Numbered from the stretch's first letter, positions 10,757 through 18,570 are shown. The stretch: 64,000 bases of DNA from an uncultured Thermoplasmata archaeon (GCA_964475625.1 CAYYXK010000001.1:30935-94934); one strand, 5' to 3'. Notes: a model not told the origin generated them from the sequence alone. Numbers and translations: made by a program.

Positions 10757-12646
10757 ATGAGCGAAGAATACACTGCACAGAATATTCAGGTTCTGGAGGG
10801 CTTGCAGGCCGTTCGAAAGAGGCCGAGCATGTACATCGGGAGCACCGACTCCCGCGGGCTTCACCATCTCGTGTACGAGGTCGTGGACAACAGCATAGAT
10901 GAGGCCATGGCAGGGTACTGCACCCATATAGAGGTCTCTATCAACGAGGACAACAGTGTGACTGTCAAGGATGACGGCAGAGGCATTCCGGTGGACAAAC
11001 ACGAGAAATACGGTGTTTCCGCACTGGAGATTGTCATGACAAAACTGCATGCCGGCGGGAAATTCGATAGGAAATCGTACAAGGTTTCCGGCGGACTGCA
11101 CGGCGTGGGTGTTTCCGTCGTCAATGCCCTATCCGAATGGATGAAAGTCGCGGTAAAAAGGGACGGGAAGATACACTATCAGGAATACGAAAGAGGGGTC
11201 CCGAAAGGCCCGCTGGAAATAGTCGGTGAAACCTCCGAAAGAGGGACCGAAATAACTTTCATGCCGGATTCGGAGATATTCAGCACGATAGTCTTCGATT
11301 ACGAAATCCTCCGACACAGGATAATGGAACTGGCATTCCTGAACAAAGGTGTCAGAATAACCATAGAAGATAGGCGGGTTGAGGAAAGGAAAGAGACCTT
11401 CCACTATGAAGGAGGGATAAAGGAGTTCGTGGAGTACCTCAACAGGATGAGAAAACCGCTTCATCCGGAGCCCGTATATATCTCGGGGGAGAAGGATGAT
11501 GTTCAGGTCGAGATATCCATGCAGTACACGGACGACTACAAGGAACAGATATACTCATATGCCAACAACATAAACACCATTGAAGGCGGGACGCATCTCA
11601 GCGGCTTCCGCTCCGCCCTGACAAGGGTGATGAACGAGTATGGCTCGAAGCACGGAATACTCAAGAAGGACGAGAAACTGAGCGGAGAGGATGTCAGAGA
11701 GGGACTTACGGCCATAATAAGCGTCAAAGTACCCGAACCGCAGTTCGAGGGGCAGACAAAGACGAGGCTCGGGAACGGAGAGGTCATGGGAATAGTCTCA
11801 TCACTTGTCTATGAGAAACTCATGGAATTCCTTGAAGAGCATCCGTCCGTGGGTGAAATATCACTTACGAAGGCCAAACTGGCGGCACAGGCAAGGGAAG
11901 CGGCCCGTAAGGCAAGGGAACTCACGCGTAGAAAGGGGCTTCTTGAAGGCGCTGCACTTCCCGGAAAACTGGCCGACTGTACCGAAAAGGACCCTTCGAA
12001 GAGCGAGCTCTTCATCGTCGAAGGGGACTCGGCGGGCGGCAGTGCGAAGCAGGGGCGGGACAGGTATTTTCAGGCGATACTCCCGCTCAGAGGAAAGGTC
12101 ATAAATGTCGAAAAAGCGAGGCTGGACAAGATACTGAGGAACAACGAGATAAGGGCCCTCATCACCGGGATCGGTACCGGCATCGGAGAGGAATTCGACA
12201 TCTCGAAGCTGCGCTACCACAAGATAATCATAATGACCGATGCGGATGTTGACGGAGCGCACATACGGACGCTTCTGCTAACATTCTTTTACAGATACAT
12301 GAAACCGCTCATAGAGAACGGGCACATCTACATCGCACAGTCCCCGCTCTACAAGGTGAAGAGGGGGAAGACCGAAGTTTATTGCTATTCCGACGAGGAG
12401 AAAGAAGAGGCTCTGAAAAGGATGCCGGGAGCTTCCGTTCAGAGATACAAGGGTCTCGGAGAGATGAACGCCGAGCAGTTGTGGGAGACCACCATGGACC
12501 CGGAGACAAGGAAAATGATCCGAGTAACGATAGAGGACGCTATGATGGCGGACGAACTGTTCAGCACCCTGATGGGAGACAGCGTGGAGCCCAGAAGGGA
12601 ATATATCTACAGACATGCGAAGGAGGTCGTGAACCTTGACATCTGA
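10757..12646 (+). CDS. gyrB: DNA gyrase subunit B
   Basis: Canonical GyrB motifs are present: '[19 protein letters not shown]', GHKL ATPase, and Toprim 'EGDSAGG'. Confidence 0.95.
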
Positions 12647-16145: not shown

Positions 16146-18570
16146 AATGGAAGATACGGATGAACAGAGGATAATCGAAAAACCCGTCGAGGAGGAGATG
16201 AAACACTCCTACATCGACTATGCGATGTCCGTTATAGTAGGCAGAGCGCTCCCTGACGCGAGGGACGGTTTGAAACCGGTACACCGCAGGATACTGTATG
16301 CCATGCAGGACATGGGGATCACATCCACGAAGGCATACAAGAAGAGCGCAAGGATAGTGGGAGAGGTCCTGGGTAAGTATCACCCGCACGGCGACAACGC
16401 CGTATATGACGCACTTGTAAGAATGGCACAGCCCTTCTCGTTGAGGTACCCGCTCATTGACGGGCAGGGTAACTTCGGGAGTGTCGACGGTGACAGTGCG
16501 GCGGCCATGAGATACACCGAGGCCCGGCTCTCGAAGATAGCGGAGTACATGCTGAAGGACATCGAGAAGAACACGGTTGATTTCGTACCGAACTTCGATG
16601 CCAGCCTGAAGGAGCCCGGGGTACTTCCATCGGTCTTTCCGAATCTTCTTGTGAACGGTTCGTCCGGAATAGCCGTGGGAATGGCGACGAACATGGCCCC
16701 CCACAACCTCAATGAGATAATAGACGGGATACTAGCTCTTATGGATGACCCGGAGATGAGCATGCCTGACCTGATGGAATATGTGAAAGGCCCGGATTTC
16801 CCTACGGGAGGTATAATCTACGGGAGCGCTCCGATCTATCAGGCGTATGCCACTGGCAGAGGAGCTGTCAAGGTAAGGGCGAGGACACATATCGAGGAGA
16901 ACGGGAACCGTGAGAGGATAGTTGTCACGGAGATACCCTATATGGTGAACAAGTCCGAGCTTCTGAAGAAGATAGCGGACCTTGTGAAGAACGGGGTCAT
17001 CGAGGGAATATCGGACCTGAGGGACGAGTCGGACCGCAGAGGTATGAGGATAGTCATAGAACTGAAAAGAGATGCGATGTCGGACATAGTTCTCAACCAT
17101 CTCTTCAAACACACACAGATGCAGACCACTTTCGGAATAAACAATGTGGCTCTCGTTGATGGAGTTCCAAGGACGCTCAACCTGAAGGAGCTTATGAACG
17201 AGTTCCTGAAACACAGGAGGACAGTCATACGGAGGAAGACCGAATATGAGCTGAGAAAGGCGGAGGAAAGGGCCCACATACTCGAGGGGCTCCTCATTGC
17301 GCTGGACCACATAGACGAGGTCATAAAGCTCATAAGAGGGTCGAAGAGCGCCGACGAGGCGAAACAGCACCTTATTGCCCGGTTCCTCTTCACCGAAGTT
17401 CAGGCGAAGGCGATACTCGATATGAGGCTTCAGAAACTTACGGGCCTTGAAAGGGAGGCTCTTCGCAGCGAGCACCGGGAACTTATGGAAAAGATAGCGG
17501 ACCTCAAGGACATACTCGCACAGGATGAAAGGATCATGGCGATAATTCGCGAGGACCTTCTTGAGATAAGGGAGAAGTTCGGGGACGAGAGGCGCACCGA
17601 GATAATGGAAAGCAGCGAGGACATAGAGATAGAGGACCTGATACCTGACGAAGATGTCGTTATAACGATGACAAAGGCCGGATATGTGAAGCGCATACCT
17701 CTTGAAACATACAAACAGCAGAGAAGAGGAGGTAAGGGCCTTATCGGAATGGATACGAAGGACGAGGACTTTGTGGTCTCGGCTATGACGACCACCAACC
17801 ACAAGTACATCCTTTTCTTCACGAACATAGGAAGGGTCTACTGGCTGAAGGCATGGCAGATCCCTCAGAGCGGACGGCGTTCAAAAGGAAAGCCCGTTGT
17901 CAATCTGCTCCCGAATCTGGAAAGGGGAGAAAAGATTGCGGCTGCCATACCTGTAAAGGACTTTTCGGAGGGGTACATCGTCTTTGCCACGCGGAAAGGC
18001 ATAATAAAGAAAACCGAGCTCATGGCGTACAGCCGGCCTCGCTCCACTGGAATATGGGCGATAGGCATCAATGAAGGGGATTCCATTGTCGATGTCTCGC
18101 TCTCCTCGGGAGATGACCAGATAGTTCTTGCAACGCGCAACGGATACGCTAACCGCTTCGATGAGAGCGAGGTGAGGCCCATGGGGAGAACCGCACACGG
18201 CGTCCGCGGAATAAGGCTGAAGAGCGATGAGGACGAGGTTGTTTCCATGGATATCGTGCATGAAGATTCCATACTGCTGAGCATAACGGAAAGAGGCTAT
18301 GGAAAGCGCTCTTATGCGAGGGACTACCGAAAGACGCACAGAGGCAGTCACGGAGTGATCGCGATGAGGATAAACGAGAGGAACGGGAAGCTCCTCAGGG
18401 TGCTCGATGTCTCCGATGTGGAAGAGATACTTCTCACAAGCAGGAACGGTATGATGATAAGAGTGCCCGTGGAGCAGATATCCATACATGGCAGGGCCAC
18501 CATGGGTGTGCGGATCATGCGGATGAACGAGGGCGACATCGTTGTGGACGTGGAGCCTCTGGTGGAGTGA
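16138..18570 (+). CDS. gyrA: DNA gyrase subunit A
   Basis: '[29 protein letters not shown]' is present, with the active-site Tyr region and C-terminal beta-pinwheel repeats. Confidence 0.95.

Follow-up and report, generated by a model that had tools for sequence, protein, structure and literature searches.

Introduction

Type IIG restriction-modification (RM) enzymes methylate host sites and cut unmodified DNA, an action established for BpuSI, MmeI and DrdV, and most descriptions of defence genes place them in variable defence islands, under regulation of their own. In this work, we analysed a 64,000-nt stretch of DNA (the window) from an uncultured Thermoplasmata archaeon (GCA_964475625.1 CAYYXK010000001.1:30935-94934), in which a predicted Type IIG RM gene lies between gyrB and gyrA; coordinates are those of the window unless another contig is named, and gyrB, the RM gene, gyrA and the elements belonging to them lie on the plus strand. 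Like the Type IIG and IIL enzymes (BpuSI, MmeI, DrdV and the Eco57I family), the encoded protein appears to combine in one chain a PD-ExK nuclease, a helical connector, a gamma-class methyltransferase (MTase) with an NPPY motif and a C-terminal target-recognition domain (TRD). Unlike the solved members of this group, with which it shares 11-15% sequence identity, it has an extra conserved C-terminal domain of ~200 aa, and, unlike known Type IIG/IIL systems, it is encoded within an essential operon by a gene that has no promoter region to itself.

In bacteria, the Kobayashi group has described RM genes inserted in operon-like clusters and at boundaries between a stop and a start codon, as well as Type IIG alleles that differ in their TRDs (PMC2993543, PMC2853133). 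As in the bacterial insertions into operon-like clusters (PMC2853133), the RM gene of the window interrupts a cluster that is contiguous in a related genome, at a stop/start boundary and with its neighbours intact. Those insertions are single cases that often come with long target duplications (PMC2853133), whereas the insert in the window is without duplication, no direct repeats of tens to ~100 bp being found at its flanks. The archaeal cassette also differs from them in being a bare open reading frame (ORF) that reuses the initiation site of the downstream gene, and in that two essential-operon slots are filled repeatedly across divergent archaea. Furthermore, the locus resembles the allelic Type IIG TRD loci (PMC2853133), in which conserved N-terminal and MTase parts are combined with unrelated TRDs at one locus with conserved flanks. 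The published allelic cases lie within bacterial species, whereas the pattern at the gyrB-gyrA junction (the gyr slot) spans lineages whose gyrB is ~70% identical and has essential-operon anchors. Gyrase and operon embedding go unmentioned in two surveys of the RM and defence systems of archaea (PMC10609329, PMC12988326), and a full-text literature search for RM genes with gyrB/gyrA insertion returned nothing relevant. The bare-ORF cassette, the takeover of the downstream initiation site and the repeated use of two essential-operon junctions in divergent archaea appear to be new.

Results

An RM gene fills the gyrB-gyrA junction

The RM gene spans positions 12636-16145 (1169 aa; TTG start, TAA stop at 16143-45) and is open throughout, without interruption, which speaks against the frame-shifted or inactive ORF considered in the first-pass annotation of this DNA; the catalytic motifs are also present (see below). 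It is preceded by gyrB (10709-12646, 645 aa), whose product was recognised by Pfam (DNA_gyraseB, Toprim and HATPase_c) and by the NCBIfam model TIGR01059 (score 1042.8, cutoff 882). The gyrB stop codon TGA lies at 12644-46, and the two genes overlap by 11 nt. A Shine-Dalgarno (SD) sequence, GGAGGT (12622-12627), is made by the gyrB codons K-E-V and stands 8 nt 5' of the TTG at 12636. Both elements fall within the final 25 nt of gyrB, exactly where the first-pass annotation had read them, and its description of an RM gene wedged on the same strand between the two gyrase genes, without a spacer, holds in all its coordinates.

On the other side, gyrA (16138-18570) encodes 810 aa from the ATG at 16138 or 807 aa from the ATG at 16147; its product matches Pfam DNA_topoisoIV (3e-175), six GyrA_C blades and the NCBIfam gyrA model (1207, cutoff 877). 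The gyrA translation-initiation region (16134-16149) comprises GGAG (16134-37), ATG 16138, the RM stop TAA (16143-45) and ATG 16147. The 8-nt overlap between the RM stop and the gyrA start that had been proposed, in ATGAGTAAAATG, is present if gyrA begins at ATG 16138, but it gives way to a 1-nt gap if the second in-frame ATG, 1 nt past the RM stop, is used. ATG 16147 is off the RM reading frame, is kept in three filled loci (the window and the contigs L002 and L167) and follows a GGAG at a distance of 9 nt; its claim to be the true gyrA start is therefore at least as good as that of ATG 16138. The junctions of the window were found again in an independent Logan assembly and in other genomes, which rules out an assembly chimera.

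The junction is empty in close relatives

A scan of contigs using GyrA listed 80 loci, 78 of which were bacterial, the peptide patterns being too conserved, and left L007 and L008 as the useful ones; a search with the N-terminal third of GyrA yielded partial GyrA sequences of ~70% identity from many phyla, none of them from a close relative. Among the matches listed, L007, a contig of a Thermoplasmata metagenome-assembled genome (MAG), was the closest relative (94% and 91% aa identity for gyrB and gyrA, respectively), and it is without the RM gene. Its gyrB and gyrA overlap by 11 nt (9998-10008 of L007). Translation of this gyrA begins from an identical GGAGGT-N8-TTG set within the gyrB codons K-E-V-V-N-L-D-I-stop, an unusual start that could escape annotation. 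The window is identical to L007 through TTGACATCTGA (to 12646), diverges after it and regains homology at ~16150-16170. The segment absent from L007 (12647-16163, with its right end between 16149 and 16169) amounts to ~3.5 kb replacing 12 nt. The RM ORF occupies the L007-type gyrA initiation site plus its first three codons, and the gyrA N-terminus of the window (MSKMEDTD..) is new, being coded by the 3' tail of the insert.

Because the same motif starts gyrA in the RM-free L007, the SD and TTG were taken over by the RM ORF rather than imported, so that the first-pass reading of them as the start signals of the RM gene needs this correction. As judged from the sequence, the RM 3' end supplies a replacement SD and ATG for gyrA, the SD being encoded by the final RM codons (TTC GGA GAT GAG).

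A second pair of empty and filled loci was found in Methanomassiliicoccales-like archaea, namely L098 (filled) and its RM-free relative L008 (empty; gyrB 83% identical to that of L098). The junctions of L098 read 'TGA TTACC ATG..RM..TAA AA ATG' and that of L008 'TGA TATT ATG', which differ from those of the window and are equally tight. Taken together, gyrA directly follows gyrB in L007 and L008, whereas the RM gene stands between them, on the same strand, in the window and in L098. The gyr slot is therefore polymorphic, with filled lineages and empty close relatives.

No direct or inverted repeats flank the insert, with at most a 3-nt TGA microhomology. Insertion by a transposon or integron, or with a long target duplication, was ruled out by the lack of terminal repeats and of an integrase or transposase and by the single ORF that fills the insert. 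A virus-borne origin was likewise dismissed, as no relatives were found among the viral contigs searched. Downstream of gyrA, L007 is collinear with the window for ~12 kb. Synteny breaks just upstream of the gyrB promoter region (window ~10620, L007 ~7982), and the upstream 8 kb of L007 has no counterpart 5' of gyrB in the window.

The slot is filled in other archaea, and a sister clade follows atpF

RM homologs, complete or partial, occupy the gyrB|gyrA slot in at least six other Thermoplasmatota contigs (L002, L005/L088/L006, L092, L098, L090 and L167). The gyr-slot loci come from Thermoplasmatota MAGs wherever names exist, and the gyrB of the other filled contigs is 68-74% identical to that of the window. 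The identities of RM and gyrB to their window counterparts are 64% and 73% in L002, 49% and 71% in L005/L088/L006, and 43% and 68% in L098, a Methanomassiliicoccales relative. L092 contains gyrB and the RM gene and terminates within the latter, L090 contains the RM gene and gyrA, and in L167 both flanks are partial. The occupant was always an RM enzyme with conserved catalytic motifs and never a conserved protein of another kind, the finding that the first-pass annotation had named as decisive against its assignment.

The window-type junction, with the RM TTG in NLDI-stop and the tail ATGAxTxAxATG, is common to the window, L002 and L167. The left junction alone is shared by L092, whose contig ends in the RM gene, and by L005, whose right end is different. 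In all filled loci, an SD-like GGAG, GGAGGTG, GAGGTG or GGGGGA lies in the last RM codons, 6-9 nt before the gyrA start.

In a sister clade (L003/L004/L087, L097, L168 and L169), the RM gene belongs to the A-type ATP-synthase operon, where 0-1 nt separate it from atpF upstream. Together with the other filled gyr slots, this clade shows that the insert is not unique to this genome or lineage-specific. The order at this atp slot is atpF, the RM gene, an AlbA_2/Schlafen-type gene (full or truncated) and atpA. In L003 (11486-12889), the third of these is a 467-aa AlbA_2/Schlafen + HATPase_c_4 gene on the same strand that overlaps the RM stop by 10 nt; in L168 (9163-9474), only a 103-aa remnant is left. 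Since the AlbA_2/Schlafen gene is absent from every gyr-slot locus, it is not an obligatory RM partner, although it could be another passenger of the defence type.

Farther removed members of the RM family follow varied genes (among them purB, an aminotransferase gene and Mrr) at ordinary gaps of 80-200 nt, except at an IF-2B locus, where there is a 4-nt overlap between the RM start and the gene before it. The ordinary defence-island context of these distant members contrasts with the operon-embedded clade. Defence genes beside them include an AbiEii toxin gene downstream in L089 (4005-4829) and an Mrr-type restriction enzyme gene upstream in L112 (2094-3029), L115 and L117.

TRDs are swapped among alleles at the slot

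In a neighbour-joining (NJ) tree of the N-terminal 546 residues, which has no support values, the window grouped with L005, L002 and L092, while L090 paired with L098 and the atp clade was placed between. The TRD (14703-15515, ~residues 690-960; Pfam TaqI_C 1.3e-10) is discordant with this tree. The window TRD is 61% identical to that of L002 and 56% to that of the atp-slot L003, but ~20% to those of L005, L092 and L098, whose N-terminal parts are 58-68% identical to that of the window (L005 68%). Unrelated TRDs thus occur in alleles whose N-terminal parts are 64-84% identical.

The pair L002 and L092 is an example: GyrB is 97% identical, the N-terminal parts of the RM proteins are 84% identical with a mosaic identity profile, and the TRDs are unrelated. 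In the alignment of L002 6095-10770 with L092 4098-8768, gyrB nucleotide identity rises from 79-89% in the 5' half to 90-97% in the 3' half. This step in gyrB and the mosaic RM gene suggest recombination tracts reaching into gyrB. Within the atp clade, the RM N-terminal part shows 79-85% nucleotide identity, compared with 71-80% for most flanking atp genes; L003-L168 is an exception, with atpA (80.3%) slightly above the RM gene (78.9%). Between L003 and L169, the RM gene is 85% identical at the nucleotide level versus 74-76% in the flanking atp genes, and identity rises from ~73% to 85-92% about 100 nt before the RM start, within atpF. This breakpoint is compatible with a conversion tract; it indicates a recombination tract ending in atpF, and thus probably exchange.

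Base composition also sets the TRD apart. The TRD segment has a GC content of 0.38-0.44 and a GC content at third codon positions (GC3) of 0.50, whereas the rest of the RM gene has a GC3 of 0.66; across the window, the dip to 0.38-0.44 spans 14300-15500 and is confined to the TRD-coding segment. In the RM N-terminal part, GC3 (0.66) and a value of the codon adaptation index type (0.83) equal those of gyrB and gyrA. Because GC3 and codon use are host-like, the RM gene as a whole appears not to be a recent foreign arrival, and the TRD may have been imported later than the rest. Recent import into the window via divergent homology arms was ruled out, as identity to L007 is 85-91% at the gyrB 3' end and 81-89% at the gyrA 5' end, no lower than elsewhere; no flank anomaly was found beside the insert in the comparison of the window with L007, nor in that of L098 with L008.

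These data bear on the possibility that the RM gene entered gyrB|gyrA once, in ancient times, and has been inherited strictly vertically since then, with precise losses in L007 and L008 and no lateral exchange. In its favour, the RM N-terminal identities (57-67%) track those of gyrB/gyrA (68-76%) roughly proportionally, in a compatible four-taxon pattern, the window, L002 and L167 share a homologous left junction and 3' tail, and the flanks without imported tracts and the host-like codon use point in the same direction. However, strict vertical descent does not fit L002 and L092, whose 97% identical GyrB proteins accompany mosaic RM genes with unrelated TRDs, nor the atp clade, in which similarity is higher in the RM gene than in the genes around it and a breakpoint lies in atpF. 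It would also require at least one relocation to account for the relatives at the second operon slot, as well as repeated precise in-frame deletions, and we regard it as unlikely.

The protein is a predicted single-chain Type IIG enzyme

Pfam searches of the RM protein matched Eco57I (2.5e-44), N6_Mtase (3.8e-24), MmeI_Mtase, TaqI_C and, weakly, HSDR_N, and the best PADLOC model was REase_MTase_IIG (9e-140, residues 13-961). Together with the invariant motifs described below, these matches bear out the combination of a PD-ExK nuclease, an NPPY gamma-class MTase and a TRD read in the first pass. The N-terminal PD-(D/E)xK nuclease domain (12744-13085, ~residues 37-150) contains D77 (12864-66) and E91-A-K93 (12906-14), and all of the 77 homologs aligned keep D77, E91 and K93. 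The gamma-class N6-adenine MTase domain (13683-14630), covered by Pfam Eco57I, N6_Mtase and MmeI_Mtase, contains the S-adenosylmethionine (SAM) motif (13815-13847) and NPPY (14289-14300). In the same alignment, D396, G400, S401 and F404 of SAM motif I are invariant, as are N552-P553-P554 of NPPY, while Y555 is replaced by W in 10 homologs. The order of the elements is that of the gamma class (motif I at residues 394-404, NPPY at 552-555 and TaqI_C at 777-950). The conserved C-terminal domain (15516-16142) ends in a VYELYGL..EIKIIEE helix. The protein is of full length, its alignments covering 99-100% of its homologs, and it departs from the family at 5 of 161 highly conserved columns, the family median being 3.

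An AlphaFold (AF2) model built from the 77-homolog alignment had a predicted local distance difference test (pLDDT) value of 88.5 and a predicted TM-score (pTM) of 0.77, and its nuclease domain shows three core beta-strands at residues 64-92. Foldseek against the PDB matched the full chain to BrxX/PglX, BpuSI (3s1s; 1022 aligned columns), DrdV and MmeI, and the MTase and TRD part to CamA and BseCI. Profile matches in the PDB for the MTase/TRD part were CamA, BseCI, PglX, TaqI and DrdV; the nuclease domain was undetected in this sequence-only search and required fold comparison. With respect to the MmeI type, the Pfam MmeI_Mtase model scored 44.4 bits (cutoff 27) and Eco57I scored higher, at 151.8, and the fold match to 5hr4 had a TMt of 0.62. 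No companion MTase gene adjoins the RM gene, whose flanks are gyrB and gyrA. Based on sequence profiles and the predicted fold, the enzyme is placed in the Type IIG/Eco57I-MmeI-like group, and the ORF was confirmed, at this level, to encode an intact single-chain Type IIG RM enzyme with predicted activity.

One alternative is a domesticated or solitary MTase with a dead nuclease and an epigenetic or housekeeping role in the gyrase operon. Host-like codon use and an apparently long residence in an essential operon would suit such a protein; moreover, the public annotation of relatives is 'N-6 DNA methylase', and the nearest solved relatives by sequence, CamA and BseCI, are MTases only. However, the nuclease residues D77/E91/K93 are invariant in 77/77 homologs, the PADLOC Type IIG model extends over the N-terminus, and the full-length fold is like that of BpuSI, DrdV and MmeI. 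TRD swaps between close alleles are typical of diversifying defence specificity, and the RM gene is dispensable in close relatives. This alternative is therefore very unlikely.

It is less likely still, to the point of being extremely improbable, that the protein is the MTase of a BREX-like or other multi-gene defence system (PglX/BrxX-like) rather than a stand-alone RM enzyme. Partial PglX matches were obtained with NCBIfam and PADLOC, and BrxX and PglX are among the fold matches. Nevertheless, NCBIfam BREX_1_MTaseX scored 132.7 against a cutoff of 500 and BREX_2 110.6 against 400, the best PADLOC model was the Type IIG one, a conserved N-terminal nuclease is present, and the neighbours in every filled locus are gyrB and gyrA, with no brx or pgl genes.

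Expression signals along the gene string

An AT-rich spacer 5' of gyrB contains a TATA-like box, TTTATATA (10639-10646), a pattern match only, which is the putative promoter of the whole gene string. The only cluster of TATA-like hexamers near gyrB, the RM gene and gyrA is the one upstream of gyrB; none was found in 12300-12700 (the 400 nt before the RM start), in agreement with the lack of a promoter-like spacer reported in the first pass, nor in 15700-16200 (450 nt before the gyrA start). Beyond gyrA, a PrsW-family protease gene (18572-19357) begins 1 nt after the gyrA stop, and a 90-aa Pop5/Rpp14-like ORF (19359-19631) begins 1 nt after the stop of the protease gene, so that the spacers along the string are -11, then -8 or +1, then +1 and +1 nt. 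There are no runs of five or more T within gyrB or gyrA; three T5 tracts occur in the RM gene (12784, 14836 and 14874), the latter two inside the low-GC TRD segment, and T5-T7 runs begin at 19664, past the Pop5/Rpp14-like ORF. A scan for sigma-70 promoters and intrinsic terminators gave match counts at or below shuffle expectation and is uninformative for an archaeon.

The simplest reading of this arrangement would be one five-gene transcription unit, gyrB-RM-gyrA-prsW-Pop5-like. Since no recognisable promoter element lies upstream of the RM gene, its co-expression with gyrase would be the most economical reading. The RM gene might instead be expressed independently, with internal promoters in the 3' part of gyrB (for the RM gene) and in the 3' part of the RM gene (for gyrA), and the close packing might reflect compaction. 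Promoters that lie in coding sequence are known from archaea, and the sigma-70 scan does not extend to them; the T5 tracts in the RM gene might also be partial terminators. Against this, both intervals before the start codons are free of TATA-like hexamers, the stop/start overlaps with an SD embedded upstream are conserved at both junctions in all filled loci, and the RM start is the exact gyrA start site of the empty relative L007. Independent expression is thus distinctly unlikely.

Other features of the window

Elsewhere in the window, a lone 5S rRNA gene (41338-41459, 99 bits) was found, and no tRNA genes were detected across the 64 kb. A 163-aa ORF (8100-8591) is flanked by genes for an Lhr-type helicase (5337-8093) and a DHH phosphoesterase; its GC3 (0.40) and codon adaptation are the lowest of the window, it has no Pfam match, and it may have been recently acquired. 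Low codon adaptation (0.61-0.67) without a Pfam match was also seen for the ORFs at 2705-3106, 3643-4014, 4213-5292 and 60829-61536.

Discussion

The best explanation of these findings, to which we assign a probability of roughly 0.72, is that an intact Type IIG cassette consisting of the ORF only sits in the gyrB-gyrA junction, and that this junction is a recurrent, exchangeable RM slot. The enzyme would recognise a short asymmetric site, methylate it in host DNA and cut incoming DNA in which it is unmethylated. Having no promoter region or non-coding flanks of its own, the RM gene would most likely depend on the gyrB promoter for its transcription. For translation, it would use the SD and TTG with which gyrA starts in RM-free relatives, and termination-reinitiation at the SD and ATG contained in its own 3' end would bring ribosomes to gyrA. 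Alleles, and TRDs especially, would be exchanged at the slot by homologous recombination anchored in the conserved flanking genes, and the sister clade would use the atpF|atpA junction likewise. Such a location may guarantee expression of the RM gene and make it resistant to deletion; more speculatively, it would guard the gene because only a precise in-frame deletion keeps gyrA translated. A putative addiction or stabilisation role of the gyrase linkage, as put forward in the first-pass annotation, is plausible.

Several points count against this explanation. The tree of the N-terminal parts is without support values. At the gyr slot, one old insertion with repeated precise loss would fit the data as well as repeated transfer, since no anomaly is seen in the flanks and the distances among RM genes and among gyr genes are compatible with co-divergence. 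The hexamer scan leaves room for internal archaeal promoters, and the three T5 tracts in the RM gene might partly stop archaeal transcription before gyrA. Finally, the RM protein carries G402A (13839-13841) in SAM motif I, with CGSASF for CGSGSF; this is the sole non-glycine at that position among the 77 homologs, and it might weaken SAM binding and hence both activities.

In behaviour, the RM gene can be compared with homing endonuclease genes and inteins, which also place a nuclease gene in or between conserved essential genes with a patchy distribution among relatives. Indeed, gyrA, gyrB and the genes for ATPase catalytic subunits are classic intein hosts, and NCBIfam includes a GyrA_w_intein model. 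The RM gene differs in that it involves no splicing, and nothing was seen to suggest that its enzyme cleaves an empty allele close to the slot. Many sites in a genome would be cut by a Type IIG enzyme, and only one possible co-conversion boundary was seen.

We offer as a tentative possibility, itself somewhat doubtful, that this clade has become an 'operon-junction parasite' whose bare ORF is confined to the stop/start junctions of highly conserved essential operons (gyrB|gyrA and atpF|atpA). If this were true, it would borrow the transcription of the operon and the ribosome-binding site of the downstream gene, and it would be removable solely by precise in-frame deletion. The flanking genes would serve as homology arms for its spread and for the exchange of alleles and TRDs among distant archaea. 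Such a strategy would be like that of inteins or free-standing homing endonuclease genes, but in a defence system.

Overall, an RM enzyme that looks active is found wired to the expression of DNA gyrase, and its relatives to that of ATP synthase, in several archaeal lineages. For population screens of Thermoplasmatota, the gyrB-gyrA spacer could mark the presence, absence and specificity turnover of the RM gene. If the placement is adaptive, it would be a strategy for RM persistence and spread, with essential-operon junctions as safe harbours and recombination anchors, and the dosage of a genome-cutting enzyme would be tied to core DNA-topology genes.

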